Origin: Klebsiella pneumoniae
GTDB lineage: Bacteria; Pseudomonadota; Gammaproteobacteria; Pseudomonadales; Azotimanducaceae
DNA: 64,000 nt
Assembly (NCBI GenBank): GCA_945861675.1
Contig: CAMAVY010000002.1
Span: 1-64,000, forward strand
Direction: 5' to 3'
In this document: positions 16 to 59,478 of the stretch, in pieces
Layout: each line of letters opens with the position of its first letter
How positions within the stretch are numbered: position 1 is the stretch's first letter
Made by a program: the position numbers and the translations under genes
Notes under the pieces: generated by a model
The model's input: the letters and a program-made list of their open reading frames with translations, nothing else
Told to the model about the DNA's origin: nothing
The model's database searches: none

Positions 16-1170
16 ATGCCGCATTGCCCGCTGAACACCCACGGAGTCCTGTGCATGGCTGGTAAGGCCGCAATCATTGCCAATCCGATGTCCGGCCGCG
101 ACGTGCGTCGGCTGGCTGCTCGTGCGACCAACATGACGCACGAAGCCAAGCGCGATCTGGTGGCGCGGGTGGCGGCCGGTCTCGACGCCATGGGCGTGGA
201 CGAGATCATGATCTTGAAGGAGCCGTTCCGGGTCTCGAGCGGTGCGCTGGAGATGATGCCGCTGCGCGCGCGTGTACGACTGTTGGATGTCGGCGTTACG
301 AACTCGGCGGCCGACACCGTCGCTGCAGTGCGCGCAGCGCGCGCTGCGGGCTGCGACGTGATCATTTCGTTGGGCGGCGACGGCACCAACCGGATCATTG
401 CCCGCACCTGGCCGGACGTACCGCTGGTGCCGTTGTCAACGGGCACCAACAACGTGTTTCCAATATTGATCGAGGCCACGAGCGCAGGCGTGGCTGCGGG
501 CCTCATCGCCAACGGATCCATGCCTGCCGGTGATGTTGCGACGCGGTGCAAACTTGTGCACGTGCGCACGGCGAGTTGGCACGACATCGGCGTGATTGAT
601 GCGGTGTTGCTGCGACGCGATCACGTTGGCAACTTTCTGCCGTTCGACGCTGATCGCATTGCCGCGTTGGTGTTGACGCGCGCCGAGCCCGCAGCGGTAG
701 GCATGTCGCCCATCGGTGGTTATGTGGACCCGGTGAGCTTTGCGGATGAGTGGGGTCTGGCGTTGCGCTGCGGGCGAGCTGCAGACGCCCCCGCAGGAGT
801 TACACATGACGCCGCAGGCGCTACACATGACGCCGCAGGCGCTACACACGAAGCCGCAGGCGCTACACACGGTGCGTTTGAACCTGGTCAGTCGACTGCC
901 CGCGACCTGTATGTGCCTATCTCGCCCGGATTGTTTCGTGCAGTGCACGTTGCAAGCCATGCACGATTGCCGTTTGGCGCTCCGTTCGTGTTCGAAGGTC
1001 CGGGTGTTGTGGCTTTCGATGGCGATCGCGAACACAAGCTCGCCGATGGCGAACAAGCAATTGTCAGCGTGCAGCGCGATGGTCCGCCCGTTGTCGACGT
1101 AGCACGCTGCATTCAGTTGGCAGCAGCACGCGGCATTCTTTCCGCCGGCGCGTGGTTGCCGTCGGAGTAG
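16..1170 (+). CDS. ATP-NAD kinase / diacylglycerol-kinase-like catalytic-domain protein (COG3199-type). Carries an in-frame 21-bp tandem repeat at ~791-872.
   Basis: GGDGT motif (ISLGGDGTNRI) and a glycine-rich N-terminal region. Length ~380 aa. Alternative ATG at 55. AAGATH(D/E) x3.5 repeat inside the protein. Confidence 0.6.
   Translation: MPHCPLNTHGVLCMAGKAAIIANPMSGRDVRRLAARATNMTHEAKRDLVARVAAGLDAMGVDEIMILKEPFRVSSGALEMMPLRARVRLLDVGVTNSAADTVAAVRAARAAGCDVIISLGGDGTNRIIARTWPDVPLVPLSTGTNNVFPILIEATSAGVAAGLIANGSMPAGDVATRCKLVHVRTASWHDIGVIDAVLLRRDHVGNFLPFDADRIAALVLTRAEPAAVGMSPIGGYVDPVSFADEWGLALRCGRAADAPAGVTHDAAGATHDAAGATHEAAGATHGAFEPGQSTARDLYVPISPGLFRAVHVASHARLPFGAPFVFEGPGVVAFDGDREHKLADGEQAIVSVQRDGPPVVDVARCIQLAAARGILSAGAWLPSE
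791..872 (+). repeat. In-frame 21-bp tandem repeat (GCCGCAGGCGCTACACA(T/C)GAC x ~3.5) inside the NAD-kinase-like gene
   Basis: Encodes AGVTHDAAGATHDAAGATHEAAGATHGA. A related 15-mer recurs in the repeat of the unrelated gene at 31850-31905. Confidence 0.8.
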
Positions 1171-1234
1171 ATGATCACTCGCGCCTTGACGCGCGACCAA
1201 CCCAAAAGAACGAGAACGTCCCAGGAGACTCTGC

Positions 1235-2407: not shown

Positions 2408-2467
2408 GCGCGTCCTGGTTGACGGCGTTGCGCTGAGGCCGACGGCGTGCGGGCTGGCGTGTGCGCG

Positions 2468-5465: not shown

Positions 5466-6509
5466 GTGACCGACGACCGACTCACACAATCGTTGTTCTT
5501 GAAGGCATGCAGAGGCGAGCGCACGGCGCGGACACCCGTGTGGCTGAATCGGCAGGCCGGGCGGTATATGCCGGAATATCACCGAGTGAAGGGCAATACG
5601 CCGTCACTCGACTTTTTCAAGACGCCGGAGCTGGCCGCGACGGTGACCTGCGATGCGCAGCGCATCCTGGGCGTTGACGCGGCGATCATGTTTGCAGATC
5701 TGCTTCCTGTGCTTGAACCGATGGGCTTGCAGCTGGACTACCTGCCGTCTTTGGGCCCGAAGTTCAGCAATCCTGTGCGAGACGCGGCGGCGGTAGACGC
5801 ATTGCGTGTAGTTCCAGCGAAGGAGGGCACGCCCTACATCGCGGATACGGTGAGGTTGATTCGTCGCGAACTGTCGGCGGACATCCCGCTGATTGGTTTC
5901 GCCGGCGCGCCCTTTACCTTGGCTTCCTATGCAATTGAGGGCCAGGGGTCGAAGGAATATCTGCACATGAAGCGCTTCATGTATGGCGACTCCGGCGCCT
6001 GGGCTGCGCTGATGAACAAACTTGTTCAGCAGGTCGCCGACTACGTGCTGCTGCAGATTGAAGCAGGCGTGCAGGCCGTGCAGATCTTCGACTCCTGGGT
6101 TGGCTGCCTGTCTGTGTCGGACTATCTGGAGTACGCGCAGCCCTATACCCGTGAGCTGTTTCGACTCATTGGTGGACGTGTGCCCGTGATCTACTTCGGG
6201 ACGGGGAACCCGCACCTGGTCGACGACATGTACCGTTGCGGACCTGACGTCATGGCGCTCGACTGGCGTACGCCGTTGGTGCCGACCTGGGAACGCTTAG
6301 GTTGTCGTGCAGTTCAGGGCAATCTCGATCCGATTGTGCTGTGTTCGACCCCGGCGGTCGTGCGACGTCAGGTAGAACGGGTGCTTGGGGAAGTGGATGG
6401 TCGACCGGGACACATCTTCAATCTGGGGCACGGAATCGTGCCGTCGACGCCCGTCGACAACGTGAAGTTGCTGGTGGATTGCGTCCACGAATACCGGGCT
6501 CGCACTTAG
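5466..6509 (+). CDS. hemE: uroporphyrinogen decarboxylase
   Basis: GTG start. TPVWLNRQAGRYMPEY signature and full-length HemE-like sequence. Confidence 0.9.
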   Translation: MTDDRLTQSLFLKACRGERTARTPVWLNRQAGRYMPEYHRVKGNTPSLDFFKTPELAATVTCDAQRILGVDAAIMFADLLPVLEPMGLQLDYLPSLGPKFSNPVRDAAAVDALRVVPAKEGTPYIADTVRLIRRELSADIPLIGFAGAPFTLASYAIEGQGSKEYLHMKRFMYGDSGAWAALMNKLVQQVADYVLLQIEAGVQAVQIFDSWVGCLSVSDYLEYAQPYTRELFRLIGGRVPVIYFGTGNPHLVDDMYRCGPDVMALDWRTPLVPTWERLGCRAVQGNLDPIVLCSTPAVVRRQVERVLGEVDGRPGHIFNLGHGIVPSTPVDNVKLLVDCVHEYRART

Positions 6510-6632: not shown

Positions 6633-6688
6633 TGGCCGCATGTTGAGCGACCGTACGGGGAGGACTGTGCATCAGGGCCAGGCCGGGC

Positions 6689-9422: not shown

Positions 9423-9676
9423 GGTTTCCGGGACCTCCGAAGCGACGCTGCGGCGTCGAAATCCATCAGCCGTCGAGGCCTTGTGGCTCGCTTGACCTTC
9501 ACCATTCCGTAGCCGGCCGCGGGATCTGTGGGCGGGACGCGCCGCCGGATCACCAGCCGAATGACACCGCCTTCATCCACGAACTCGACCTGCGTGCCGG
9601 GCGTGAGCTCATACCTCGCGCGTATTTCCGCCGGGATGATGATCTGTCCCTTTGCGGTGAGCGTCGCCGCTGCCAT
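9419..9676 (-). CDS. vapB: AbrB/MazE-type antitoxin VapB
   Basis: 85 aa. SpoVT/AbrB-like swapped-hairpin N-terminus (AKGQIIIPAEIRARYEL). AGGAG RBS. Directly upstream of and overlapping vapC. Confidence 0.75.
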   Translation of the reverse strand: MAAATLTAKGQIIIPAEIRARYELTPGTQVEFVDEGGVIRLVIRRRVPPTDPAAGYGMVKVKRATRPRRLMDFDAAASLRRSRKP

Positions 9677-9699: not shown

Positions 9700-10560
9700 C
9701 GGAAGAGTAGCACGGCTTACCTAGTAAGCGACCACGTGATCGGCGGAGGTGTCGACCTGGAGCGCTTCGGGCCGCTGCCGCGGATAAAGCGAATGCCTGC
9801 GTCGCACGTGGCGCAGGATCCGGATGCTGAAACTGCCGACGCGCACCCTACGACTGCACCACCTCGAACCTCGTGCCCGGGCTGCCACCTACTTCCAGTT
9901 CGCAGTTGCCGTAGGCTTCGCGCGTCGCATAGCGCGTCGTTGCGTCGAAAGGAAGCTGCGCGTAGCCGCGATCACAGCGCAACCTGAGCGTCGCCACTCT
10001 GCCTTCCAGCAGGCGGAGACGACGAAGCGGCGTTTCAGCAACGGGAGCAGCCACGCGCGGTTGTCGGACAGCTTGCCCGCCGTCTTGAACCCGCGCGCGT
10101 CGGTGGCGAGCAACGCGAGCTCCTCGTTCAGCCTCAGGTTTGCGGGCAGGGCGCGCAGGTTCGGGTCCAGTTGGGCGAGCGTAGCCCGTGCGCGCCCGAG
10201 GTCCTGACGCCTCGCGTGCAGCCGCAACAGCATCTCTAGCGCGGCGCGTCGGATGGACTGCGGTAGCGCGTCGCCGTAGATCTGCCCTTGCAAGGCGCGT
10301 TCGAACACTTCCACCTGTTGTTGCTCGCTGCCCCAGCGCCCGGCGAAGTACGCCTCCGTGAAGGAGACGTACACACCCTCGTCGAACGTCCGGGCGCGCA
10401 GATCTGCAATAGCGCGCTCGGCTTCGGCGCGATCGCCCGGATCGATGGCACCGGCTTGCTACGCCATATTGCAGGCGAAAAGCGTACGCGGCACATCCAA
10501 TCCAGCGCGCTCGCCGTCTATGCGGGTTCGCCGGACCAGCGGTTGATGGCGATGGCCTGT
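9700..10560 (-). pseudogene. Degraded remnant of a BTAD/SARP-like (TPR-containing transcriptional activator domain) regulator gene
   Basis: Minus-strand frames give ...IDPGDRAEAERAIADLRARTFDEGVYVSFTEAYFAGRWGSEQQQVEVFERALQ...LEMLLRLHARRQDLGRARATL..., interrupted by stops and frameshifts. No intact ORF >161 aa. Confidence 0.3.
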
Positions 10561-15203: not shown

Positions 15204-15269
15204 GACGGCGGAGACCTTTGTCGGGCCGCTATTCTGGGCGGGCGGACAAGAGGCGGGAAGAGGCGCGCG

Positions 15270-15320
15270 AGCTGTTCGCTTGCCGAGTTGTTCGCTTGCC
15301 CAGTTGTTCGCTTGCAATGC
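15270..15320. repeat. Intergenic ~16-bp tandem repeat x3 (AGTTGTTCGCTTGCC-like)
   Basis: gagctgttcgcttgcc gagttgttcgcttgcc cagttgttcgcttgc, in the divergent argE / gspE-like promoter region. Confidence 0.6.
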
Positions 15321-17298: not shown

Positions 17299-18966
17299 AT
17301 GAGCGCACTTCCATCCTGGGTATGGCCGTTGGCAGCTGTGCTGACAATCGCAGTGCTGTTCTGGCTGTCGATCCGCCGCGTGCCACAAGGTAACGAATGT
17401 GTGGTCGAGCGTGCGGGGCGCTATCGCCGCACGCTCAATTCGGGCACGCACTTCCTGCTGCCATTGCTCGATCAAGCAGGTCCGTTGATCGATATCCGCG
17501 AAACACCGTTGAACATGCGCACGCTGAAGGTGGTGACGCGTGACGAGATCGAGGTCGAGGTCGCGCTGCTGTGCTTCGTGCAGATTACAGATGCAGCGCG
17601 GGCAACCTACGAAGTGCGTGATGTGCGCACGGCAGTCGAGGAACTGGTGGGCGTGCAGGTTGCCAATCATCTTGCGGCGTGTCCGTTGGGCCAGTTGGTC
17701 ACTGATCGCGAACGCGCGTTGCTGGAACTGCCGGATCGGTTGGATCGTGCGACAGACGTCTGGGGCATCAAGGTCACACGCCTGGACATCAAGGATGTGC
17801 GCCCGCCTGAGCAGCTGTTGCAGGCCATTCTTGAAGAGACACGCAACGAGCATGAGCAGCGCACGCGCCTGCTCGAGGCGCAGGCCGCGCGCAACCTGGA
17901 ACTGGAAGAACTGCAGCGCGCACATCAGCTGCAGTTGCAGAAGACGCAGCAGGAGTACGAGCAGGCGCAGGCAGCCGAAAACGCCGCCATGGCGCTCGCA
18001 TTGAGCCAGCAGGCAGCGGCCGCGCAGGCGGCCCGCTTGGAACATGAAACGGCCGCGCAGGCGGCCCGCTTGGAACATGAAACAGCCGCGCAGGCGGTTC
18101 GTACGCAGCTGGACGCTGAAGCGCGTGGCCAACTGCAGGCCCAGGAAAGTGCTGCGCTGCAACTGGCCGCGGCGCGCAACAAAGCGGAGCTCGATGCTGA
18201 GCTTGCTCGAATCGCTGCCGAAGAAGCGCGCGCACGTGAAGCGATTGCGCAATCCGAGCAGGCTGCGCGCGTGGCCCTGGCATGGCGGGAGTCCATCGAC
18301 CTTGCGCAGCGCCAACGCGAAGAAGCCGCACAACAACATCGGCGCGTCGAACAGGAAGCAACGCATGCCCATGAGCTGGCGCGCATGGCGTCCGAACATG
18401 CAGTGCATGAAGCACGCCTGCAGCACGCTCTTGAGCTCGAACGTGCCAGTGCAGAACGTGTGGCGGCGTTGGCTGAAATCGAGCATGAAAAGGTGATGAC
18501 GGCCGAGCGTCTGGGCGCGGAGCGGACGCGTCAGGCGCTTGCGTTTGTGGCAGAACAAGACGTCATGGAGCAGATGCGCACGCTCGAAGTCGCACGCATC
18601 GAAGCAGAGCGTGAAAAGAATGAACGGGAACTGGCGGCGCGGGTGCGTATCGCAGAACTGGCTGCGGCAGAGGCCGCGCAGCTTGCACGCGCGCGTGAGG
18701 TTGCAGCTGTAGCGGATGCACGTTCCGTACAGTTGCTCAGCGCATCTCTGCAGGGCGTGAACGCGGCGACGCTTTCCTACCTCGCTGCACGTGAACAGTC
18801 CGATGCGCTGCGCAGCCTGGGTAACAGCAGCCTCAACAGTGCGGCAGCCGGTGCGGCTGCAAGCATGGTGGCCAACGTCACTGCGGCCCCGCCGGGATGG
18901 GTAACAGGTGCGGCTGTCGATCACGGTGCCGACGCTGCGGAGGAATCATCGGCGAAGCGGTCGTGA
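17299..18966 (+). CDS. yqiK: flotillin-like SPFH/Band-7 protein, YqiK ortholog. Contains an in-frame 36-bp duplication.
   Basis: N-terminal TM plus SPFH domain, then a ~300-aa Ala/Glu/Arg/Gln-rich coiled coil. 555 aa versus E. coli YqiK 553 aa. Next to glnE, as yqiK-hldE-glnE in E. coli. Duplicated AAQAARLEHETA at ~18029-18100. Confidence 0.75.
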   Translation: MSALPSWVWPLAAVLTIAVLFWLSIRRVPQGNECVVERAGRYRRTLNSGTHFLLPLLDQAGPLIDIRETPLNMRTLKVVTRDEIEVEVALLCFVQITDAARATYEVRDVRTAVEELVGVQVANHLAACPLGQLVTDRERALLELPDRLDRATDVWGIKVTRLDIKDVRPPEQLLQAILEETRNEHEQRTRLLEAQAARNLELEELQRAHQLQLQKTQQEYEQAQAAENAAMALALSQQAAAAQAARLEHETAAQAARLEHETAAQAVRTQLDAEARGQLQAQESAALQLAAARNKAELDAELARIAAEEARAREAIAQSEQAARVALAWRESIDLAQRQREEAAQQHRRVEQEATHAHELARMASEHAVHEARLQHALELERASAERVAALAEIEHEKVMTAERLGAERTRQALAFVAEQDVMEQMRTLEVARIEAEREKNERELAARVRIAELAAAEAAQLARAREVAAVADARSVQLLSASLQGVNAATLSYLAAREQSDALRSLGNSSLNSAAAGAAASMVANVTAAPPGWVTGAAVDHGADAAEESSAKRS

Positions 18967-21900
18967 CCGCGTCGACATCGGATGCCGCAGCGCAACCGGA
19001 CGCCTCGTCCCCCGACAGCCCGGCGCAGCCTTATCTTCCGCCGCAACCCTATCTCCCGCCGCAGGCGCTAACACTACCGCCGGCCCTCGATGGCACCGCG
19101 CAGCGCGCGCTGGCACTGATAGGTGAACGCGCGACCGCCGAAGGCGAACACACGTTGAGTGTGTTCAACGCGGCCTGCAACAGTGCAGCGCTGCACGAGC
19201 GGTTGCTGTTCGTGCTTGCGGGTTCACCGTTCGCGGCGGATTGGGCACTGCGTGCGCAGAGCGCTGACTTCGAAGCATTCCTCAGCGGTGCATTCTCGCG
19301 GGTGCCGTCGCGCACCGAGTGGGCGCACGAGTTGCGCGGACTGCTTGATCCAATCCGTCTGGGTGATGATCCACAGGATCGCGAGCTGAAACACGAACTG
19401 CGTGTCTGGCGACTGCGCTGTCAGGTCGGCATCGTCTGGCGCGACTTGCTCGGAGAGAACGATCTCGAAGCCACTACCGCACAATTGTCGGACATGGCCG
19501 AGACCGCAATCGACGCAACTTTGCATTGCTGCTCAGCGCGGGAGACCGTCGTGCGCGGTTCGCCATCCGTCGATAGACAGGGATTGCCGCAGGCGCTTGT
19601 GGTGCTGGCCATGGGCAAGCTGGGTGCGCGCGAGCTCAATCTGTCGTCAGACGTCGATCTGATCTTTGCCTATCCATCCGCTGGCGAGACGACCGGCGGC
19701 ACTGCACGCGCCGTGACCAATCAAGCGTTCTTCCTGCGCGTCGCGCAGCGTCTGATTGCGGCGCTCGACGAATCGACCGGCGAAGGTTTCGTATTCCGCG
19801 TGGACATGCGATTGCGGCCGTTCGGTGCCAGCGGTGCACTGGTCAGCAGCTTCGATGCGCTGGAGGACTACTACCACGAGCAGGGTCGCGACTGGGAGCG
19901 TTACGCCTTGATCAAGGCGCGGCCGGTCACCGGCGATGTGGCATCGGGCGCAGTACTCATCGAACGCCTGCGACCGTTCGTGTTCCGGCGCTATCTCGAC
20001 TTCGGTGCCATCGAAGCGTTGCGCGAAATGAAGCAGCTCATCAACCGGGAACGCCTGACGCCTGCGTTTGTCGATGACGTGAAACTTGGCGCCGGCGGCA
20101 TCCGCGAAGTGGAGTTCACGGCGCAACTGTTCCAGTTGATTTTCGGTGGCCGTGACAGACGCCTGCAGGAGCGCCGGCTGCGTGTGGTGTTGCCGGTGTT
20201 GGCAGAAGAGCAGTGGCTGGGTAGCGCGGTGGTGCAAGGGCTCGATACGGCTTACGTGTTCCTGCGCCACGTCGAGCACCGCCTGCAGGCTGTTCGTGAT
20301 GCGCAGACGCAACGTTTGCCAACGGATGAATTCGAGCGCTTGCGCATTGCTACGGTGATGGGTTTTTCGGACTGGTCCGAGTTCATGCATGTGCTCGATG
20401 GGCACCGCCGCGTGGTGCAGACCGAGTTTGAACGGCTGATTGCGCGCGATGAGCCGCTTGCGCGCTTCGCGGCGTGCTGGCCGGAGGTGAGTTCGAGTGC
20501 CGAGACGCAGCTGCATGAACTGGGATTCGACGCTGAACGTGCGCTGCCCGCACTGCAGCGGCTCGCCGAAGCACGGTTGCGTCTGGCGCATCAGGATGAA
20601 GCGCGGCGACGCCTGGATCTGTTCGTGCCGAAGCTCATGGCCGCGGCGCTCGACGGCGCTGCATCCGACACCATTGCTGCTGGTGGGGCCGCCATTCCTA
20701 CTGGTGGCGCCGCTATTCCTACTGGTGGCGCCGCCACGCGCGCACTGCTGTCCGGATTGAACATTGCCGAAGCGGTGCTGCGCCGCAGCGCCTACCTTGC
20801 ATTGCTCAACGAGAACCCGGGCGCGCTTGAACAGCTCGTGCGGTTGTGTGCGGCAAGCGATGCGATTGCGAGCCGGCTGGCCGCGCGGCCCGCGTTGCTC
20901 GATGAGTTGCTCGACACACGCAGCCTGCTGACGATTCCTGACCGGGCGCAGATTGACGGCTGGCTACACGCGCAGCTTGCGCGCGTGCCGCCCGACGATC
21001 TCGAGCAACAGATGGACGCGCTGCGCAGCTTCAAGGAAGGCCACGTGCTGCGGGTTGCGGTGTGCGAAGTGTCTGGCGTGCTGCCACTGATGCAGGTATC
21101 GGACTCGCTTACGTGGTGCGCTGAGGCGGTGTTGGATGCCAGCCTCGATCTGGCGTGGCGGTTGACCGTTGCGCAGCACGGGCAACCGAGCGGTGGGCAC
21201 GACTTCCTGATCGTGGGCTACGGCAAGCTGGGCGGATTGGAGTTGGGACCAGGCTCGGATCTGGACCTGCTGTTTCTGCACGACACACCGATGACCGGCA
21301 GCACCGATGGCGAACGACCCATACCCAATCCGACGTTCTATGCGCGGCTGTCGCAGCGGTTGATGCACATCCTGACAACGTCAACACAACGCGGCGCGTT
21401 GTACGACATCGATACGCGGCTGCGACCGTCGGGCCGTGCCGGCATGATGGTGACGAGCCTGGCGGGTTTTGAAAGCTATCAGCGTGAAGAGGCTTGGACG
21501 TACGAGCATCAGGCGCTGGTGCGCGCGCGTCCGATCTGCGGGGCGCGCATGCTGGCGGAACGCTTTCAGGATGTACGGCGCCGGATACTTGCAGTGCCAC
21601 GCGATGCGGTGCAGCTGTGCGACGAGGTGCTCGCAATGCGCGAGCGCATGCAATCTGCGGCAGGCCAGCTGGGCCAGGAAACGGCCAGCGAGTTGAAGCG
21701 CGGTCGCGGCGGCATTGTGGATATCGAGTTCATCGTGCAGTACCTCGTGCTGGCACATGCGGCCGAGCATCCGGCGTTGATGCGTTACACCGATAACGTA
21801 CGCATTCTTGAATGTGTGGCGCAGGCGGGGCTGTTGAGTAACACCGATGCCAACGGGCTCACCGCGGCGTACCTTGCGCTGCGTGCTGCCGCACATGCGC

Positions 21901-30702: not shown

Positions 30703-31509
30703 CTAACCCAACAGCGCAGCGTTGGCGCGCAGATGTTGTGGATTCACTGTACCAACCACCACGCTGCTGATGCCGGGCAGTGTGCGCAGCCAGCTGAAGT
30801 GTTCAGTCAGTGCGGGCCCGGCTAGAAAACCGCTATCCAGCGCCTTCTTCACCAGCACGCCACGCTGTTCGCGGTGCGCGGCCGCCACCACGGTGGTTTC
30901 GGCATGATCCTGTGGCGCGAGACTCACCATCACGGTGTCGCAATGGCGTAGCGCGGCGAGGCCGCCCGCCAGTGTCTTGCAGGAGAACGCCACGCTGCGG
31001 ATGTGGCCCTGCGCCTGCAGCAATCGCAGCGTGGCCACGCAGTCGCTGTGTTCGAGAATCTCGATGTCGTTGCCATCGGAATGCACTGAAACGATGTCGA
31101 TGTAGTCGGTGCGCAGGCGGGTCAGGCTGCGCTCTACGCTGGCGCGCACGCTTGCAGCGGAGAAGTCGAACCGCGAACCCTGTTCGTCGAACTGCTCGCC
31201 AACCTTGGTGGCCAGCACCCAGGTGTCGCGGTTGCCGGGCAGCAGTGCACCAATGCGCGCTTCGCTGCTGCCATAGGCGGGCGCAGTGTCGATGAGGTTG
31301 ATGCCGAGTGTGTGCGCCTCGGCCAGCAGACGGCGCAACTCGACGTCGCTGGGCAAGGCGAATGCAGTTGGGTTGCGCAGACCAGTGTTGCGGCCGAATT
31401 TGACTGCGCCGAGCCCGAGCAGCGACACGCGGATACCGGTTTGCCCCAACGCTCTCAGTTCCAAGTCAGCTGCTCCCAGGCAGGAGCGGACAGCGCGGGG
31501 CGTGGGCAT
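30703..31509 (-). CDS. aldo/keto reductase
   Basis: AKR fold segments (LGLGAVKFG, IDTAPAYG, ...). Start ambiguous: ATG at 31509 overlaps the upstream gene. A TTG giving MELRALGQTG lies at ~31462-31464, 5 nt upstream of that gene's stop. Confidence 0.7.
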   Translation of the reverse strand: MPTPRAVRSCLGAADLELRALGQTGIRVSLLGLGAVKFGRNTGLRNPTAFALPSDVELRRLLAEAHTLGINLIDTAPAYGSSEARIGALLPGNRDTWVLATKVGEQFDEQGSRFDFSAASVRASVERSLTRLRTDYIDIVSVHSDGNDIEILEHSDCVATLRLLQAQGHIRSVAFSCKTLAGGLAALRHCDTVMVSLAPQDHAETTVVAAAHREQRGVLVKKALDSGFLAGPALTEHFSWLRTLPGISSVVVGTVNPQHLRANAALLG

Positions 31510-32834: not shown

Positions 32835-33088
32835 GGAGTGAGTATCAATAGTTCGGTATAGGTGGGCGCTGCGGCAGTATATCGACGGCTGCTGCTGCCG
32901 GTTGTCCTGCCCACATGTCGAACGCTCGCGTACCCGAACCCGAAGCGCACAAAGATGCTGCCGCTACGCAGTCCGGCGCGTCTTCAGGCACGGCTGAAGG
33001 CGTGCAGTCGGGTGTGCCGATGGGTCCGCAGCTGAGTCCGCAGATCGGCCCGCAGCTGGGTCCACAGTTGGGGCTGCCGCGCGCACTC

Positions 33089-34381
33089 ATGTGGCGATGG
33101 CTCTATCAGGTGTTGCTCTTGTTGCTGATGCCCTTCGTGTGGCTGCGTCTGGCCTGGCGTGCGCTGCGGATTCCCGCGCTGCGCACGCGTTGGCCCGAAC
33201 GCCGGGGCGTGCTGGCGCAGACGATTGCACCCGGCGGGATCTGGTTGCACGCGGTGTCGGCGGGCGAGGTCATTGCGGCAGCGCCGCTGATTCGCGCGTT
33301 GCGCGAGCGGCATCCCGCTTGGCCGCTGCTTGTCACCACCACCACGCACACCGGCAGCGAACGCGCGCACGCGCTGCTCGGCGATGCAGTGCAGCATGCC
33401 TATGCGCCATACGACACTGCGGCGGCAGTGCGGCGATTTCTATCATCGGCACAACCCCGCATTGCGGTGCTCTTCGAGACGGAGCTGTGGCCAAACACAA
33501 TCGAAGCCTGCCATCAGCGCGGCATTCGAACGCTATTGGTCAACGGTCGCCTGTCTGCTCGGTCGGCGCGTCGCTACGCGCGGCTCGGCACATTCACCAC
33601 GCGCATGCTGTGTCAGCTGGATGTGGTTGCCTGCCAGGATGCGGCCCACGCGGCGCGCTTTGCGCAGCTCGGCGCGCCGCGCGCGTGTATTCAGGTCCTG
33701 GGCAATCTGAAGTTCGATCTGCAGATTGATCCGGCGCTGCAAACAGCAGGCGCGGCGTTGCGGCTCCAGCCGCCCTTTGCAGGTCGACCCGTGTGGATTG
33801 CGGCCAGCACCCATGCGGGCGAAGAAGCCGTCGTGCTGGCAGCGCATCAGCAGGTTTGCATGCGGTTTCCGCAGGCGTTGCTGGTGTTGGTACCGCGGCA
33901 CCCTGAACGCGGCGATGAAGTTGAACATTTGTGTGCAGGCTGGAACGTTGTGCGACGAAGTCGTGGCGCGCTGCCGGTCGGCGATGCGCAGCGCACTGAT
34001 CCACAGCGCGGTGCCGCGCGCGAGGTGGACATCGTGCTGTGCGATCGAATGGGCGAACTGCTGTTGCTCTACTGCACAGCGCAGGTCGCGTTTGTCGGCG
34101 GCAGTCTGGTCGATGTCGGCGGCCACAATCTGATCGAGCCGGCCGCGCTGGGCGTTCCATTGCTTGCGGGGGCCAGCGATCGGAACTTTGTCGATGTTGT
34201 CGCGCAGCTACGCTCGGTGGGTGCACTGAGAATTGTGTCCGATGCTGACACGCTGGCAGCAGAGGTGTGTGCCGTGCTGGAGGACGCAGCGGCCGCTGTA
34301 GTGCGTTCGGCGGCCGGGCGTCAGATTGTGTCGGCCGGCCAAGGTGCGACCGAGCGCGTGCTGCGCTTGTTTGAAGTGTGA
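33089..34381 (+). CDS. waaA: 3-deoxy-D-manno-octulosonic acid (Kdo) transferase
   Basis: KdtA-like throughout. Starts with a hydrophobic anchor (MWRWLYQVLLLLLMPFVWLRL). The ORF is open upstream to 32915, adding an extension with a (G)PQL(S/G) repeat. Confidence 0.8.
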   Translation: MWRWLYQVLLLLLMPFVWLRLAWRALRIPALRTRWPERRGVLAQTIAPGGIWLHAVSAGEVIAAAPLIRALRERHPAWPLLVTTTTHTGSERAHALLGDAVQHAYAPYDTAAAVRRFLSSAQPRIAVLFETELWPNTIEACHQRGIRTLLVNGRLSARSARRYARLGTFTTRMLCQLDVVACQDAAHAARFAQLGAPRACIQVLGNLKFDLQIDPALQTAGAALRLQPPFAGRPVWIAASTHAGEEAVVLAAHQQVCMRFPQALLVLVPRHPERGDEVEHLCAGWNVVRRSRGALPVGDAQRTDPQRGAAREVDIVLCDRMGELLLLYCTAQVAFVGGSLVDVGGHNLIEPAALGVPLLAGASDRNFVDVVAQLRSVGALRIVSDADTLAAEVCAVLEDAAAAVVRSAAGRQIVSAGQGATERVLRLFEV

Positions 34382-34427
34382 CGCGCGGCCACCCAAGCGG
34401 TGCGCGGCCCGGTTCTGGGCGCTTCTC

Positions 34428-34475
34428 TTGGCCAGTTCGCGTGCTTGGCCAGTTCGCGTCGCCAGTTCGCGTGGT
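34428..34475. repeat. Intergenic tandem repeat (CCAGTTCGCGT x3-4) between the convergent waaA and tolC genes
   Basis: ttggccagttcgcgtgcttggccagttcgcgtcgccagttcgcgtgg. Confidence 0.55.
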
Positions 34476-41820: not shown

Positions 41821-43215
41821 TCAGTTGTCAGTCAGCAACCGTTCGGTCTGGCTGGTCAGAAGCGCCGCATGTGACGGCGCGAGGCCGGTGATCTGATAGT
41901 GAAATCTGCCTGCATCGTCGTTACCCGGGATCGGCGAGCGGATGGCCATCCAAAGTACGCGCTGGTTGTCGAGCAGGTCTTCGAACACGGAGCGCTCGAT
42001 CGCAAGCGTGTGATCCTTGGCCGTGGCGCTGAGCAGCAACGTTGCAGACAGCGCTTCATCGAGCTCGTCGAGCAGCTCTGATTCGCGGCTCGATGTGGTG
42101 GGCTGTGCCAGCCGTGTCAGGCCAGCACGAAGCCCAAGCGGCTTCTGCTGCTGCAGCGCTCGTGCGTCGTTCAACTGGGCGGTCAGGCGGAGCGCAAGCA
42201 GCGCAGCGCAGATGCCGCTGAACGCGTGGTCGTCGCCCTCGATGCTGTCGAGCAGCGCAAAGAGCCCCGTGCCGTGCAGGCGGTACACGCGGCCCTTGTA
42301 GAGCCCCAGCACGCGCTGCATGCGTTCAAAGCAAACCATGTAGGCCGCGTCGCGGTCTGTGGGTGCAAGGGAACCCTGATTGAACAGGTTCAACACCAGC
42401 AGGTAGGGCGGCGCGCTGTTGTCCGTTGCGCTGCTGTCCGACGCGGAAGACGGTGCCGCCGCGGGCGCAGGATCCGGGGCAAGCAGCATGGCCAGCGCCT
42501 GTACCTGTTGCAGCGCGGAAGAAGACTCAGGCAGACCTGCACTGGGCTGTGCGCTGCCTGAATTGGCCGTCGTCGGGCCGAAGCCCGTGGACTGTCGCCG
42601 CGCGGCTGCAGTCGTCAACCACGTGGCAGTTGTCAGTCGCGTGGCAGTTGTCAGTCGCGTGGCAGTTGTCAGTCGCGTGGCGATGGCCCGAAGTTCGCCG
42701 TCGAATCGGCTGCCGATACGCGCGCCCACCCATGCAGCGAGGAGCGCGCCGACCAGTGCCGCCAGCCAGACCAGGCCTCCGCCGTGCGGCGCCAACGCCT
42801 CCGGGTCGACCACTACGCGGACGTAGCCGACGCGCTGCGCCTCGAAACTGATGTCATGCGTGAACACCGTGTTTTCCTGCGCATCCTTGGTGGCTTCGAC
42901 AGGTACACGGCCGCCTGTGCTGATCAGGCGATTGTCCAGGGTGTAGATGGCCGTGTTGACGATGGCAGCGTCATCGGCGAGATGGGTGGTGATGACGTTG
43001 AGGTCTATGCGGTCGTGGGTGACCACCGGCGTTGCAGCCAGCGCGGCAAGCTGAGCTGTGATGGTGTTGCCATAGCGTGCGACGCTTGCCTGCCCGAGGC
43101 GGTGTTGCACCACGAGGCTGGCAGGTACCATGAGCGCAATTGCGATGCCTGCCGCAAGTAATCCGTGCAGCGCGCCTTGTGCGCGTAGTGACCAGTTGGA
43201 GACGCGTGCGGGCAT
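41821..43215 (-). CDS. two-TM membrane protein with Ser/Ala/Pro-rich linker and a C-terminal degenerate class III cyclase-homology domain. In-frame 18-bp repeat x4.
   Basis: TM1 residues ~15-36, TM2 ~150-172. ATRLTT x4 encoded by gtggcagttgtcagtcgc repeats at 42605-42686. C-terminus AAYMVCFERMQRVLGLYKGRVYRLHGTGLFALLD...LRAGL... matches cyclase domain topology but lacks the first metal-binding Asp. Confidence 0.55.
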   Translation of the reverse strand: MPARVSNWSLRAQGALHGLLAAGIAIALMVPASLVVQHRLGQASVARYGNTITAQLAALAATPVVTHDRIDLNVITTHLADDAAIVNTAIYTLDNRLISTGGRVPVEATKDAQENTVFTHDISFEAQRVGYVRVVVDPEALAPHGGGLVWLAALVGALLAAWVGARIGSRFDGELRAIATRLTTATRLTTATRLTTATWLTTAAARRQSTGFGPTTANSGSAQPSAGLPESSSALQQVQALAMLLAPDPAPAAAPSSASDSSATDNSAPPYLLVLNLFNQGSLAPTDRDAAYMVCFERMQRVLGLYKGRVYRLHGTGLFALLDSIEGDDHAFSGICAALLALRLTAQLNDARALQQQKPLGLRAGLTRLAQPTTSSRESELLDELDEALSATLLLSATAKDHTLAIERSVFEDLLDNQRVLWMAIRSPIPGNDDAGRFHYQITGLAPSHAALLTSQTERLLTDN

Positions 43216-43260: not shown

Positions 43261-44589
43261 GTGGCCGGGCCGATTATTCTGCTCAAACTCAGCGGGCGTG
43301 ATCAGAGCGATGCGACCGTGGCGCTGCTGCGGCTATTGGATCAGTTCGGAGCTCGCGTTCTCGATGTTGGCCGCGCCGAAATCCACGGTGAGTCATCGCT
43401 TGGCATGCTGTTGCAGTTACCGGATACGGGTAGTGCAATGGCGTTGTCGAACGCAGCCACGACCCTGTTGGGGCGCGTAGAGAACACCAGTCTCTCGCTT
43501 TCCGAGTTAACGCCTGAGCAGTATCTCGAATGGGCCTCGGGTCAGGGGCAGCCGCGCTACATCGTGACATTGTTGGCGCGGCAGCTGTTTGCGCGGCAAC
43601 TGTTGCGGATCACGGAGGTCGTGCAGTCGCACGGCTTGGCTGTTCGACGAATCACGCGCCTCTCCGGCCGGCCCCAGCTCGATGAAGCAGCAGGCGATGC
43701 GTCCGCGAGCCATGAGCAGGCAATTGTCGAATTCGAGCTCCGTGCGCCGTCGGTCCGTGCACTCGACATGGCGGGCGCCGCTGTTGGCGCGGCGAGGGAT
43801 CAAGGCGTGGACCAGCAGGCACTTCGACGTGCGCTGCTCGATACCTTGCGTCCGCTCGACGTCGACGTTTCCGTGCAGATGGACGACGCCGATCGGCGTA
43901 ATCGCAGACTGGTGGCCTTCGATATGGATTCCACGTTGATCCAGGGCGAGGTCATCGATGAACTCGCGAGCGCCTATGGCGTTGGCGACCAGGTGGCGGG
44001 CATCACGGCAGCCGCAATGCGTGGCGAACTCGACTTCGGCGCAAGTTTTTCGCGCCGCGTGGCGCTGCTTGCGGGTGCAGATGCCAGCTTGCTGGACGGC
44101 GTCGTGCGCGCTGTACGGCTCACGGCGGGCGCCGAACGCCTCATCCGGACCTTGAAGCGGCATGGCTATCGCACCGCGATTCTGTCGGGCGGCTTCCAGC
44201 AGGTCGGCGACCGGTTGAAGCAGACGCTGGGTATTGATCACGTGTATGCCAATACGCTCGAAGTGGTCGATGGCAAGCTGACCGGTCGCGCGCTCGGCAC
44301 GGTCGTCGACGGCGCGCGCAAAGCAGCCCTGCTGCGTGAACTTGTCCAACGTGAAGGGTTGCGTATGGCGCAGGCGATCGCGGTGGGTGACGGCGCCAAC
44401 GATCTGCCGATGCTGAGCATCGCGGGGTTGGGCGTCGCTTTTCGCGCGAAGCCCATCGTGGCTGCCAGCGCCGAGCACGCCATCACGCACTTCGGGCTCG
44501 ACGCGATCCTGTATCTGATCGGCTTCTCGGAACGCGATCTGCGCGATCCGCAACTGCTGCCGGATCAGGCCTCGCTGGCGAAGTTGTAG
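43261..44589 (+). CDS. serB: phosphoserine phosphatase with N-terminal ACT-like regulatory domains
   Basis: HAD motifs (DMDSTLI ... GDGANDLPM). GTG start at 43261 or TTG at 43228. Confidence 0.85.
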   Translation: MAGPIILLKLSGRDQSDATVALLRLLDQFGARVLDVGRAEIHGESSLGMLLQLPDTGSAMALSNAATTLLGRVENTSLSLSELTPEQYLEWASGQGQPRYIVTLLARQLFARQLLRITEVVQSHGLAVRRITRLSGRPQLDEAAGDASASHEQAIVEFELRAPSVRALDMAGAAVGAARDQGVDQQALRRALLDTLRPLDVDVSVQMDDADRRNRRLVAFDMDSTLIQGEVIDELASAYGVGDQVAGITAAAMRGELDFGASFSRRVALLAGADASLLDGVVRAVRLTAGAERLIRTLKRHGYRTAILSGGFQQVGDRLKQTLGIDHVYANTLEVVDGKLTGRALGTVVDGARKAALLRELVQREGLRMAQAIAVGDGANDLPMLSIAGLGVAFRAKPIVAASAEHAITHFGLDAILYLIGFSERDLRDPQLLPDQASLAKL

Positions 44590-54025: not shown

Positions 54026-54026
54026 T

Positions 54027-54090
54027 CGCTTTTGTCAGGAAGAGCCGCTTTTGTCAGGAAGAGCCGCTTTTGTCAGGAAGAGCCGCTTCT
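54027..54090. repeat. 19-bp tandem repeat x3.3 (CGCTTTTGTCAGGAAGAGC) between convergent orn and queG, overlapping the queG stop
   Basis: Three perfect copies at 54027-54083 plus a degenerate fourth copy. Confidence 0.8.
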
Positions 54091-55173
54091 GTTATCGAGC
54101 GCCCACTCGCAATGTTCGCGGACGAGCGCGGACGCGTTCGCCGCGCGCACCCGCAAGGCGTGGTCTATTGCTTCCGAGGCGGGCGCATTGCCCAGCGCCA
54201 CTGCGATGTTGCGCTGCCATTGTTCGTAACTCAGACGACGGATGGGCGAACCCACTGAACGCTGCTCAAAGTCCTCCGCGCTCCAGCTGAAGAGTTGCAG
54301 CAACGTCACCTGATCCAGGCCATTCTGAGACGCGAATTCACCCAGCGCGGGTCGTTTGGCGAAACGATTCCAGGGGCAGACCAACTGGCAGTCGTCGCAA
54401 CCGAAGATGCGGTTGCCCATCATGCTGCGCAGTTCCACTGGAATGCTGCCGGTGAATTCGATGGTCAGATAGGAAATGCATCGTCGCGCGTCCAGTTGCC
54501 TTGGCCCCACGAATGCCTTGGTGGGGCACACGTCCAGGCACGCTGAACACTTGCCGCAGTGCTCGCGTACGGTCGGCGAATCCAGCGGTAACGGCAGGTC
54601 GGTCAGCAGTACGCCAAGGAAGAACCATGAACCGGCGTGGCGATTCAGGATAAGCGTGTTCTTGCCGAACCAGCCCAGCCCTGCGCGTTCCGCCAGTGCC
54701 TTTTCCAGTACCGGCGCGCTATCCACGCAGGCGCGAAACCCACCGTGGCCCACGTGGCGGTTGATCTGATTCGCAAGACGCGCGAGCCGAGGTCGCATCA
54801 CCCGGTGATAGTCACGTCCAAGCGCATAGCGTGACACGTAGGCCTGCTCCGGTGCCTTCAGCACCTGCACAGGGAGTGTGTCGGCGTGCAGATAGTCCAT
54901 GCGCACCACGACAGCCCGCTGCGCGTTCGCCAGTAGCGACGATGGCCGCGCGCGTAGCGGCAGCTGTGTCGCCAGGTAATCCATCTCACCGTGATGACCC
55001 GCGGCAAGCCACTGCTGCAGGTGCTCGAGGTGCGGTGCGAGCTCAAGATCCGTGATGCGGGTTTCGTTGAAGCCAAGCTCGTGACTCCACTGCTCAATAC
55101 GCTGCCGCAGATCATGCGGGTCGATTCCGGCTGCAGTGGCTGAGGTGGTGGCTGGTGCGACTGGCTCGATCAT
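54073..55173 (-). CDS. queG: epoxyqueuosine reductase
   Basis: Two 4Fe-4S ferredoxin motifs (CGKCSACLDVCP, CDDCQLVCPWN) and a cobalamin-binding region. ATG at 55171-55173. Confidence 0.8.
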   Translation of the reverse strand: MIEPVAPATTSATAAGIDPHDLRQRIEQWSHELGFNETRITDLELAPHLEHLQQWLAAGHHGEMDYLATQLPLRARPSSLLANAQRAVVVRMDYLHADTLPVQVLKAPEQAYVSRYALGRDYHRVMRPRLARLANQINRHVGHGGFRACVDSAPVLEKALAERAGLGWFGKNTLILNRHAGSWFFLGVLLTDLPLPLDSPTVREHCGKCSACLDVCPTKAFVGPRQLDARRCISYLTIEFTGSIPVELRSMMGNRIFGCDDCQLVCPWNRFAKRPALGEFASQNGLDQVTLLQLFSWSAEDFEQRSVGSPIRRLSYEQWQRNIAVALGNAPASEAIDHALRVRAANASALVREHCEWALDNRSGSS

Positions 55174-55297: not shown

Positions 55298-57013
55298 TTG
55301 CCGCAACTGCTTCGCAATGTTGATTCCCCGTTGTTGCTCTCTGCGGCAGCTGTGCGCGCGGTCGAACGCGTGATGATCGACGCACACGGCGTACCCGGCA
55401 TCGTGTTGATGAAGCGTGCCGGTCGGGCCCTGTTTGAGCGTGTCGTTGCACGTGGCGCGCGAGCCGTGTGTGTATTTTGCGGGTCGGGCAACAACGCAGG
55501 TGATGGTTATGTGGTCGCCGGGCTTGCGCACCTTGCGGGGCTGAATGTGCAGGCGTTGCAGGTAGGTGATGCGCGCAAGTTGCCCGCAGATGCGGCGACC
55601 GCGTTGGCATGGGCGCGCGCCGCAGGTGTGCCGGTTAACGACTGGGACACAGGCGTCGACAGCGAACAGGCACGCTTCGTTGCGGCGTCCGATGTGATCG
55701 TCGATGCGCTTCTGGGCACGGGCTTTGTCGCCCCATTGCGCGCGCAGTACGTCGCGGCGATCGACGCGATCAACCGCGCCTCGGCGAATCGATCTGCCTT
55801 GCTGGAGCGTTCGGCCGGCCTCACGGTCATCGCTGCAGATGTCCCATCGGGCTTGCTGGTCGATGCGGGCGCAGCTGCAGAGGCGGTCGTGCGGGCCGAT
55901 GAAACGGTGACGTTCATTGCGACCAAGCCTGGGCTGCTGACAGGGCGCGGCCCTGAGTTCTGCGGTCAGATCTATCTGGCGGCACTGGCGGTGCCGGATG
56001 CGTTGTGCTCGCGCGTCGCTGTTGAAATGGGCGGCGAAGTCGGTGCCGCACTCGGTGCTGCACTCGGTGCAAAGAGCGCGAGCGGAACTGACGAACTGCA
56101 GATGCCCAGCGCGTCCGATGTCACGAACCTCGCGCCGATGGCGCGTGTCTTCTGGCGCGCAGAACAGGCAGTTCCGCGCCGCCGCCGCGACGCGCACAAA
56201 GGTGATTCGGGGCATGTGCTGGTGTTGGGTGGTGCGCCTGGAATGGGTGGTGCCGTGATGCTGACATCCGAAGCCGCGTTGCGTTGTGGCGCGGGCCTGG
56301 TCAGTGTTGGGTGTGCCCTTGAGCATGCGCCAGCGCTGTTGGCCCGGCGCCCTGAAGTGATGGTCAGGGGCATCACGCTCGACTCCCGCACACAGGCAGC
56401 CAGCACGCACGAGGAAAGTCTGGCCGATGTACTGGCGAAGCTGCTGCGCCGTGCCACGGTTGTCGCGATTGGTCCGGGGCTTGGTCAGGATGAGTTCGGC
56501 CGAGCACTGCTGGCGTGCGCACTGTCAGCACAGCTGCCGATGGTGCTCGATGCAGATGCGTTGAACCTGATGGCGGTCGGGTTTGCTGCCTGGCCTACGG
56601 ATACGGTCATTACGCCTCATCCGGCCGAAGCTGCGCGAATTCTCGGCGTGAGCACCGCCGAGGTCCAACAGGATCGATTGGCCGCGGCGCGCGCGCTGTG
56701 CAGGCACACGGGCGCCGTTGTCGTGCTCAAAGGCGCAGGAACGGTCGTATGTGATGGTCGACGACTGCGCATATGTACTGACGGCAACCCTGGCATGGCG
56801 GTCGCCGGGATGGGTGATGTGCTGACGGGCGTCATCGCAGCACAACTTGCCCAGGGCGTAGGCGCGTTTGATGCGGCGGTGCATGGCGTTTGCGCGCATG
56901 CGCGCGCGGGCGATCTGGCCATTGCCGACGGTGAGCGCGGCTTGCTCGCGAGTGACCTGTTTTCGTGGTTACGGCGCTTGTGCAACGGTCGTGGTGAAGG
57001 TGAAGGCGTATGA
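55298..57013 (+). CDS. nnr: bifunctional NAD(P)H-hydrate epimerase/dehydratase
   Basis: YjeF_N (GSGNNAGDG) and YjeF_C carbohydrate-kinase-like (GPGLG...GMGDVL) domains. Coordinates taken from the ORF track (hand-indexing placed the same TTG/MPQLLRN codon at ~55289). Stop overlaps the tsaE start (ATGA). Confidence 0.8.
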   Translation: MPQLLRNVDSPLLLSAAAVRAVERVMIDAHGVPGIVLMKRAGRALFERVVARGARAVCVFCGSGNNAGDGYVVAGLAHLAGLNVQALQVGDARKLPADAATALAWARAAGVPVNDWDTGVDSEQARFVAASDVIVDALLGTGFVAPLRAQYVAAIDAINRASANRSALLERSAGLTVIAADVPSGLLVDAGAAAEAVVRADETVTFIATKPGLLTGRGPEFCGQIYLAALAVPDALCSRVAVEMGGEVGAALGAALGAKSASGTDELQMPSASDVTNLAPMARVFWRAEQAVPRRRRDAHKGDSGHVLVLGGAPGMGGAVMLTSEAALRCGAGLVSVGCALEHAPALLARRPEVMVRGITLDSRTQAASTHEESLADVLAKLLRRATVVAIGPGLGQDEFGRALLACALSAQLPMVLDADALNLMAVGFAAWPTDTVITPHPAEAARILGVSTAEVQQDRLAAARALCRHTGAVVVLKGAGTVVCDGRRLRICTDGNPGMAVAGMGDVLTGVIAAQLAQGVGAFDAAVHGVCAHARAGDLAIADGERGLLASDLFSWLRRLCNGRGEGEGV

Positions 57014-57564: not shown

Positions 57565-57627
57565 ACAAGAATCGTGACGGTGCAGAGTGAACAGACGCAG
57601 CGAGAACCAACGCGACGGCGAAAACTA

Positions 57628-59478
57628 ATGGCTACGGCGATTGCGACAGGAGGCGGCCTGATGAGTATTCGGCGTGTCAGCTTGGCGCAACTGCGGTGCC
57701 TGCGCGGGCTGATGATTGTGGCGCTGCTACCGCTTGCGCAGATTGTCTGGGCTGCAGAAGTGCAGTCGGTGCGCATCAGCAGCACGTCAGCGGCCACGCG
57801 CGTGGTGTTCGATGTCTCGAAGGCCGTGCAATACGAGGTCACGACCCTCGATAACCCGCTGCGGATTGTCATCGATATGCGCGACACCGAGCTCGGCAAG
57901 CGCACCGATCCACAGCGTTTGCGGATCGCCGGAACGCCGGTGAGTTCCGTACGCAGTGCGCACCAGCCTGACGGTTCTCTGCGGTGGGTGCTGGAACTGC
58001 GGGCCGCTGCGACAACACGCAGCTTCGCGTTGCCGCCAGTAGTGCCCTATGGCCATCGTCTGGTGCTGGATCTGTTGCCGGCGAGGGCCGGCGCGCAGCC
58101 AGTCTCGGCGATGATGCGCGCAACCACGGTGCCCGTGCTCGCGTCGCGCGCTGTGGGGTCGGCGGCGGTGGCTCAGCCGGCAGTGCAACCCGCTACACAG
58201 CCGGCTACACAGCCAAGTGGTGCTGTTGCGGCGACTGCTCCGCGTGCGCCGATTGCGACACCTGCTGCTGCAAGGCCTGCTGCTGCAGCACCTGCTGAGG
58301 GCATCAAGGCGTCGGCGTCGATTCCGGCGACTGCGAGAGTGCCCACGGAAACAGCGCCGGCTGCACCGCCCGTCGCGTCGTCACAGGTGCCCGCCGATCG
58401 ATCACCTCCGAAAGAAGCGCCGGCTGCGCCGTCGTCGGCAGCGCGCACTGCGCGCCCAACGGGACCGTGGCCGGCCGGCCCTGTCGGGTCGCCGATCGTG
58501 TTTGCAATCGATGCTGGCCACGGTGGTCAGGACCCCGGCGCGCTCGGGCCAGACGGTGTGCGCGAGAAGGACGTTGTGCTGGCAACAGCCAAGCGGCTGG
58601 CCGAGTTCATCAATGCTGAGCCAGGCTTCAAAGCGATCCTGACCCGCACAGGCGACTACTTCATTCCATTACGCGAGCGGCCACGACTGGCGCGTGCAGC
58701 GGGCGCGCATTTTTTTGTGTCGGTACACGCTGATGCGCACAGCAACACCGATGCACGCGGTGCGTCGGTCTACGCGCTCTCGGAACGCGGCGCTACCAGT
58801 GAAACAGCCAAGTGGCTCGCTGAACGCGAGAACAATTCCGATCTTGTAGGCGGCGTGAGTCTCGACAACAAGGATCGGGTGCTCGCAGAGGTGCTGCTGG
58901 ATCTGTCGATGACCGCCAGCCTGACCGAGAGTCTTGAGCTTGGCAGTCTTGTGCTCAGCGAGCTCAAGGAACTCACCCATCTGCATAGCCGGCGCGTTGA
59001 GCAGGCCGGCTTCATGGTGCTGAAGTCCCCTGACATTCCCTCGATCCTGATTGAGACCGGCTACGTGTCCAACCCGATCGAAGCCAGCAAACTGGCCAAT
59101 CCCGAGTATCGCGAGAAGCTCGCGCGCGCGATCTTTCGTGGGTTGACGGCGCAAGCGCTGCGGCGGCCGCCGCAAGGTACGTCGGTCGCATTGCGCGGCC
59201 GGGACCAACCTGCGAACGGTGTCCAGGCTTCCTCGACGGGTGTCGAGGCCTCATTCACAGCCTCATCCGCAGGAGGAGGTGATGCGGGATCGAGGCCTGC
59301 GCTTGCGAGCGTGGACTCGAACCGCGCCTACGTTGTCGCAGCCGGTGACACGCTGCGCACGATTGCCGAGCGCTTCGGCGTGTCGCAGCGCATGATTCGT
59401 CGGCTGAACGCCCTGCGTACCGATCGCGTGCGCGTGGGACAGACATTGCGTCTCCCACGGGCACGCGGTGAGAGCTGA
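57628..59478 (+). CDS. amiC: N-acetylmuramoyl-L-alanine amidase (AmiB/AmiC type) with C-terminal LysM
   Basis: Amidase_3 domain (IDAGHGGQDPGA). Ala/Pro/Thr-rich linker with QPAT repeats. C-terminal LysM (YVVAAGDTLRTIAERFGVS). Possible Tat-like signal (SIRRVSLA). The ORF is open upstream to 57574 (GTG). Confidence 0.8.
   Translation: MATAIATGGGLMSIRRVSLAQLRCLRGLMIVALLPLAQIVWAAEVQSVRISSTSAATRVVFDVSKAVQYEVTTLDNPLRIVIDMRDTELGKRTDPQRLRIAGTPVSSVRSAHQPDGSLRWVLELRAAATTRSFALPPVVPYGHRLVLDLLPARAGAQPVSAMMRATTVPVLASRAVGSAAVAQPAVQPATQPATQPSGAVAATAPRAPIATPAAARPAAAAPAEGIKASASIPATARVPTETAPAAPPVASSQVPADRSPPKEAPAAPSSAARTARPTGPWPAGPVGSPIVFAIDAGHGGQDPGALGPDGVREKDVVLATAKRLAEFINAEPGFKAILTRTGDYFIPLRERPRLARAAGAHFFVSVHADAHSNTDARGASVYALSERGATSETAKWLAERENNSDLVGGVSLDNKDRVLAEVLLDLSMTASLTESLELGSLVLSELKELTHLHSRRVEQAGFMVLKSPDIPSILIETGYVSNPIEASKLANPEYREKLARAIFRGLTAQALRRPPQGTSVALRGRDQPANGVQASSTGVEASFTASSAGGGDAGSRPALASVDSNRAYVVAAGDTLRTIAERFGVSQRMIRRLNALRTDRVRVGQTLRLPRARGES

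Follow-up and report, generated by a model that had tools for sequence, protein, structure and literature searches.

The 64,000-nucleotide stretch analysed here (contig CAMAVY010000002.1 of assembly GCA_945861675.1, positions 1 to 64,000 of the forward strand; hereafter the window) comes from an uncultured high-GC gammaproteobacterium and carries short tandem repeat arrays within and between its housekeeping genes. These arrays are very probably independent, recent and local tandem duplications which are specific to this lineage and were kept where extra length is tolerated and in intergenic spacers. A preliminary description of this DNA had attributed them to a genome-wide family of minisatellites inserting into genes, in preference to independent slippage, because two unrelated genes seemed to share nearly the same unit. 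That proposal was not supported and is largely refuted within the window. The outcome is mostly negative: the apparent shared-unit repeats in housekeeping genes are best described by normal slippage and reading-frame selection in a GC-rich genome, not by a new mobile repeat family, and no new class of element is involved.

To list the arrays, Tandem Repeats Finder (TRF) was run over the window (63% GC), and the arrays were then read codon by codon with Pfam domain maps for the host genes. Genes were called from Pfam matches and from gene calls on fetched contigs; a gene finder relying on third-codon-position GC, which chose antisense frames for several genes, was dropped. The 36 rows of TRF output were merged into 31 arrays, 13 with a score of at least 50 and 5 with a score of at least 100. 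Forty shuffles of codon blocks gave a mean of 0.97 arrays with a score of at least 50 (maximum 3), while the 18 arrays scoring 30–49 were at the chance level of about 17.6. The comparison with shuffles therefore indicates that the strong arrays, in which one unit is repeated head to tail, clearly exceed chance and are real, and that the weak ones are background. Among the arrays scoring at least 50, those with a period divisible by 3 were all in open reading frames (10/10; the coding status of one, at waaA, is uncertain), and those with other periods (16, 17, and 19 bp) were all intergenic (3/3). This split indicates that the duplication process is not specific to genes and that selection for the reading frame decides which duplications survive within them. 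Nine of the ten in-frame coding repeats that had been reported, numbered (1) to (10) here, were confirmed by TRF and codon reading; the remaining one, array (10) at queG, was out of frame and mostly intergenic. Rfam and tRNA scans of the window gave no matches.

The copy numbers of two arrays are not the same in all assemblies. The exact Hfq and RNase T-family proteins of the window led to a second assembly of this organism, represented by the 46-kb contig k141_541726 in ENA ERZ27280297 (L175, the same contig as L172). Its positions 1–21426 aligned to positions 42538–64000 of the window without a single mismatch over 21,426 bp; the alignment has exactly two gaps. At 42622, L175 lacks one 18-bp unit of array (7) (42608–42681, minus strand; TRLTTA in 3.3 perfect copies and one degenerate copy), which shortens the encoded two-helix membrane protein (41821–43215, minus strand) from 464 to 458 residues. 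At 54027, it lacks one 19-bp unit of array (10) (54027–54092; 3.5 copies). Four weaker arrays in the same part of the window, including that at 43571–43605, were identical in L175. Arrays (7) and (10) appear to be genuine variable-number tandem repeats (VNTRs), and the length polymorphism for which a comparison of copy numbers had been suggested seems to be present at both. To judge from these alignments, arrays (7) and (10), which have the most perfect copies, gain or lose whole units more rapidly than substitutions accumulate, as is expected of slippage VNTRs. Whole-unit variation was also seen at array (5) against a more distant relative, described below. Arrays (7) and (10) can be used as strain markers for this uncultured organism. 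Another contig (L174, ERZ27280264) differs from the window by 2 substitutions in 1446 bp, which points to at least one more strain in public data.

All coding arrays are located in hypervariable loops or linkers whose length differs among relatives, which bears out the earlier suggestion of protein-linker length variation. Moreover, every array that could be compared was absent, single-copy or different in the closest relatives. Array (1) (791–869, plus strand; 21 bp, 3.8 copies, 93% matches, A-A-G-A-T-H-D in frame) is at a hypervariable insertion point of an NAD-kinase-like protein (gene 55–1170). Orthologues at 72–77% identity have no insert at this site, the relatives L082 and L083 (80–85% nucleotide identity) have unrelated inserts, and a separate clade has a low-complexity insert of its own. 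Array (5) (31877–31913, minus strand; 15 bp, 2.5 copies, THAGT) is in a FAD-dependent oxidoreductase (31455–32834, minus strand), in a hairpin loop which follows the conserved strand EPRLTITTH. The suggested comparison with structure models places these repeats in loops: the AlphaFold2 confidence score (predicted local distance difference test, pLDDT) was below 50 exactly at arrays (1) and (5), namely at residues 250–279 of the NAD-kinase-like protein, with no secondary structure, and at residues 315–326 of the oxidoreductase, in a beta-hairpin loop. In distant homologues these loops have grown through separate duplications. An oxidoreductase at 48% identity (P0130) has TSHSW-TSHSW after the conserved strand, and an NAD-kinase-like homologue (P0039) has its own GQGQGHGQGQ at the loop of array (1). 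By these alignments the two loops are evidently recurrent expansion sites, and the locus illustrates how protein loops and linkers gain length.

The remaining coding arrays showed the same pattern. Array (2) (18017–18097, plus strand; 97% matches, AAQAARLEHET) is in the coiled-coil tail of an SPFH/Band_7 protein similar to YqiK (gene 17299–18966), beyond the Band_7 domain, which ends at residue 196; its unit, given previously as 36 bp in two copies, was 33 bp (11 residues) by TRF, in 2.5 copies. The orthologue in L167 has 11 residues fewer at this site. Two arrays are in glnE. Array (3) (19019–19063, plus strand; 18 bp, 2.5 copies, PQPYLP) is in the N-terminal tail, where the closest orthologue (P0241/L166) has a single PPQPYL. 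Array (4) (20671–20736, plus strand; 21 bp, 3.1 copies, GGAAIPT) lies between the two glnE halves and forms an insert of about 18 residues, which was absent in 10/10 aligned GlnE orthologues, one of them at 84% amino acid identity. Array (7) directly follows the second membrane helix of its uncharacterised host protein. Homologues have a single IxxRLxxA there, and P0361 has one IGDRLGAAL followed by a 37-residue gap, compared with four units in the window. In nnr, array (8) (56040–56070, plus strand; 12 bp, 2.6 copies, GAAL) occupies part of a 37-residue insert that 7 distant homologues lack, in the linker joining the YjeF_N and Carb_kinase domains. Arrays (9) (58192–58214, 12 bp, 1.9 copies, QPAT; and 58254–58297, 15 bp, 2.9 copies; plus strand) are in amiC, in the Ala/Pro-rich linker that joins the AMIN and amidase domains; in tblastn alignments of 57 homologues, coverage is down to about 5% at residues 181–300. 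Among protein-cluster members at 90% identity or more, no copy-number variants were found for yqiK, waaA, nnr, amiC, the NAD-kinase-like gene or the FAD oxidoreductase; neither the 464-residue membrane protein nor GlnE at its delimited length of 1012 residues had an entry in that collection.

Array (6) (33019–33072, plus strand) is a degenerate repeat of 12/24 bp with 75–84% matches (PQLG), located in an N-terminal extension or the 5′ region of waaA. The array reported there is present, and the 72-bp stretch that contains it is absent in the relative L084. Its in-frame coding status is uncertain because the two annotations disagree on the start of waaA: the source annotation gives a 488-residue form in which the array is coding, while that of the relative gives 431 residues from a downstream MWRW, which places the array upstream of the start. 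The upstream extension (32915–33091) is open in frame in the window and in L084, and the 72-bp length difference is divisible by 3. These features mildly favour translation of the extension; the annotation of the relative starts at the downstream ATG.

The proposed family of insertional minisatellites rested on the similarity of arrays (1) and (5), which does exist. Their common unit, CGCAGGCRCTACAC, extends over 14 nt with one mismatch (13/14), is in the same reading frame and encodes AG[A/T]TH. The match is only marginally unusual: as the best 14-mer match among all pairs of arrays, it had P = 0.12 against random segments and P = 0.047 against random units repeated in tandem. If one family with the core GCAGGCRCTACAC had inserted into genes throughout the genome, an excess of similar sequences would fit, and 7 matches with at most one mismatch were indeed found in the window against 0.35 expected from dinucleotide shuffles; there is also a precedent in Burkholderia pseudomallei, where one motif forms arrays at several loci (PMC1853098). 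However, four of the seven matches are the arrays themselves, and the other three are unrelated and not in tandem (GCAGGCGCTGCAC twice and GCAGGCGGTACAC once). In the k-mer search, arrays (1) and (5) were the only places in the window with GCAGGCRCTACAC in exact form; another 2.1 Mb or so of fetched loci, 85 kb of it from close relatives, contained no exact copy. The remaining arrays have mutually unrelated units (the next best pairwise match is 12 nt), and a repeat search of the window revealed no dispersed family. Six arrays were folded as DNA; none of them surpassed its shuffles (z-scores from -1.5 to +2.1), and no palindromic or terminal-inverted-repeat structure was found in them. Furthermore, the site of array (5) is not empty in the relative L084 (GCA_031368475.1, 84% nucleotide identity across the FAD gene): it reads ACCATT-ACCACGCACGCGGGCAGCACACCC and differs from the window only by the lack of exactly one 15-bp unit. 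Because L084 holds one unit fewer, the unit can be recognised as the gene's own T-T-H-A-G coding sequence, duplicated in place together with the family-conserved TTH motif. On the evidence of these loci, an insertional family is therefore extremely unlikely. Equally remote is the idea that metagenome assembly created the repeats or distorted their copy numbers. The contig was indeed assembled from a metagenome, and the two assemblies disagree at two arrays, but array (1) recurs unchanged in an independent Logan assembly of run ERR5863107, and each disagreement amounts to exactly one unit, the 21 kb being otherwise the same. The arrays, at 23–81 bp, are below the read length and the k-mer size of 141 (taken from the contig name), so that single k-mers span them, and the reading frames are kept throughout. 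A collapse by the assembler is unlikely at arrays (7) and (10), because both are shorter than a read.

The whole-unit changes of arrays (7) and (10) within 21 kb free of substitutions could also be expected if the arrays were contingency loci, that is, selected hypermutable switches. This would apply above all to the 18-bp array, since it would alter the length of the membrane-adjacent segment of a sensor-like protein right after the second helix, where helix length can, as we suppose, affect signalling, and the neighbouring genes are related to signalling (PAS-EAL, FimW-like). Nevertheless, units of 12–33 bp in 2–4 copies that keep the frame offer no on/off switching, and they contrast with the 1–7 bp units, long tracts and shifts of frame or promoter spacing of such loci. 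The host genes are mostly cytoplasmic housekeeping enzymes, the array positions are the least constrained ones, and one of the two polymorphic arrays lies between convergent stops, which fits mutation rate rather than selection. We consider contingency loci improbable, and the earlier suggestion of them is not supported in its usual sense of frameshift or promoter-spacing switches in surface or virulence genes. Short tandem duplications may also arise unusually often in this lineage, for instance if template switching or single-strand exonuclease activity were less strictly suppressed; such a bias would add to the general mechanism and is the least unlikely of these alternatives, though still doubtful. 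It would agree with the finding of two unit changes but no substitution in 21 kb, and with the number of near-perfect arrays: at a TRF score of at least 100 there are 5 arrays in the window, compared with 1.25 per 64 kb in 28 unrelated loci of GC 0.60–0.75, 0.7 in 85 kb from close relatives and 0.16–0.50 in lower-GC loci, all scanned with the same settings. Template switching in Escherichia coli is known to be restrained by dedicated proteins (PMC7145654). On the other hand, the overall density (score of at least 50) was only 1.2–1.7 times that of the relatives and the other high-GC loci (13 per 64 kb against 10.5 and 7.5, respectively; 1.9–3.2 in lower-GC loci). The window is a single stretch of 64 kb picked because a reader had noticed its repeats, and the excess must be discounted for this selection bias. 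In addition, mutL is present with all its domains, and no defect of a repair gene was found in the window, which is only a part of the genome. A still bolder combination is quite unlikely, namely a raised rate of 12–33 bp duplications in this lineage which changes the lengths of housekeeping linkers and loops on the timescale of strain divergence, with the six-residue membrane-adjacent unit as a possible in-frame tuning knob of signalling.

A high density of arrays characterises GC-rich genomes as well as this clade, because the relatives bear arrays of their own at similar density. These arrays are at other positions, such as the 33-bp arrays of L167, and in the unrelated high-GC loci 36 of 54 arrays had a period divisible by 3. 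Scans with glnE (genome contigs) and nnr (metagenome contigs) found relatives at 35–50% identity only, and these served as baselines of density and site variability. A joint query of 1277 residues, made of seven segments flanking repeats, matched glnE homologues alone and so gave no close relatives of yqiK, the membrane protein, serB, nnr or amiC. The window is at the upper end of the density range, with a modest excess of young near-perfect arrays.

Local tandem duplication would proceed as follows. A piece of 12–33 bp of native sequence would be duplicated in tandem, independently at each array, and units would later be gained or lost. That units come from adjacent native sequence is illustrated by array (5) compared with L084, array (7) with the homologues P0361 and P0362, array (3) with L166, and array (10) with the 3′ end of queG. 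The nascent strand probably misaligns during replication, by slipped-strand mispairing or by template switching between short direct repeats, which abound in coding sequence that is GC-rich and rich in Ala, Gly, Pro and Thr. Within genes, only frame-preserving events would persist, and only in loops, inter-domain linkers or terminal tails that are free of constraint; between genes, any period could. Turnover appears to be fast, since arrays are absent or different in relatives at 80–85% nucleotide identity and the two most perfect arrays seem to be still changing within the population. The slippage mechanism itself and the near-neutrality of the arrays are what we infer from this pattern.

Four points weigh against regarding the arrays as nothing but near-neutral background slippage at independent sites. 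The one-unit differences come from assemblies and not from reads, so that heterogeneity within a sample or the choice of the assembler is inseparable from a difference between samples. One null model makes the same-frame 14-nt match of arrays (1) and (5) nominally unusual (P = 0.047). Arrays with a score of at least 100 are 4–7 times denser in the window than in the comparison loci, which plain background slippage does not fully explain. Finally, a sensor-like protein could be affected by a change of six residues beside its membrane helix.

The arrays can be compared with several known systems. They resemble bacterial VNTRs and coding minisatellites, such as those used in multiple-locus VNTR analysis of B. 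pseudomallei. In this GC-rich species tandem arrays are abundant and those in genes are mostly multiples of three (PMC1853098), and the window likewise has head-to-tail units in a GC-rich host, multiples of three within genes and other periods between them, with whole-unit changes far faster than substitutions. The units in the window are longer (12–33 bp) and the copies fewer (2–4) than at typical loci of this analysis (motifs of 3–16 bp, 4–21 copies), and there are no large arrays and no motif that recurs at many loci. In proteins, tandem repeats occur preferentially in disordered regions (PMC7230257). The coding arrays share with such repeats and low-complexity regions their richness in Ala, Gly, Thr, Pro, and Gln, their location in loops, inter-domain linkers and tails, and their predicted disorder; they differ from conserved functional protein repeats in being very young and lineage-specific. 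Like Rickettsia palindromic elements and elements similar to repetitive extragenic palindromes (REP) or miniature inverted-repeat transposable elements (MITE), the arrays add peptide segments at surface positions of intact housekeeping proteins, but their units derive from the host gene and have no dispersed copies, shared sequence or palindromes. With the phase-variable contingency loci of Neisseria, Haemophilus, and Campylobacter they share hypermutable tracts that change by whole units; there, however, the tracts are found in surface or restriction genes.

The intergenic arrays lie between convergent stops or upstream of one gene. Array (10) fills the 47-bp spacer between the convergent genes of an RNase T-family exonuclease (stop at 54025) and queG (stop at 54073–54075). 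Only its last unit overlaps the final 6 codons and the stop codon of queG; the array is a duplication of queG's own 3′ end, and each unit has a copy of the queG stop codon. No hairpin was predicted in array (10). The two other non-coding arrays, neither of which had been listed before, are at 15268–15315 (16 bp, 3 copies), upstream of an M20 peptidase gene, and at 34427–34472 (17/13 bp), between the convergent waaA and outer-membrane efflux (OEP) genes. The orthologue of the peptidase in L167 was called at 392 residues, which places the start downstream of the array. A 12-nt match between these two arrays was dismissed as chance. One further array absent from the earlier list is that at 43571–43605 (plus strand; 15 bp, 2.3 copies, LARQL in frame), in a serB-like gene identified by its ACT and HAD domains in Pfam.

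Several relatives carry arrays near the corresponding genes. Just upstream of the NAD-kinase-like orthologue, 17-bp tandem arrays were found in L082 (385–438, 3.2 copies) and L083 (1262–1300, 2.3 copies); the window begins too near this gene to reveal a similar upstream array. The arrays of L167 (about 70% nucleotide identity) are at 6029–6105, 9546–9625, and 9804–9871. They include its own 33-bp arrays in the intergenic region between the M20 peptidase and T2SSE genes and in the C-terminal tail of yqiK, where there is also a 15-bp array of 4.5 copies. The regions that bear these arrays match those of the window, while the array sequences differ.

The limits of some host genes were also revised. 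The called start of the NAD-kinase-like gene is 13 codons downstream of the start derived from the open reading frame. By comparison with L166 and L167, glnE most likely starts with the GTG at 18963, overlapping the stop of yqiK (GTGA, 18963–18966); the longest open reading frame (from 18897) overstates the protein by 22 residues. The gene calls on L175 give 366 residues for queG and 605 for amiC, both shorter than the longest open reading frames. Nnr (55298–57013) is about 70 residues longer than its distant homologues, owing to the 37-residue linker insert and a segment of about 10 residues, LDSRTQAAST, in the dehydratase domain. The two-helix membrane protein has no Pfam match, has a conserved C-terminal domain (PPYLLVLNLFNQ...GTG...DHAF) and gave 241 homologues with E of at most 0.001 among cluster representatives. 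Its PAS-EAL, FimW-like and MshEN/T2SSE neighbours suggest a role related to cyclic-di-GMP signalling or pili.

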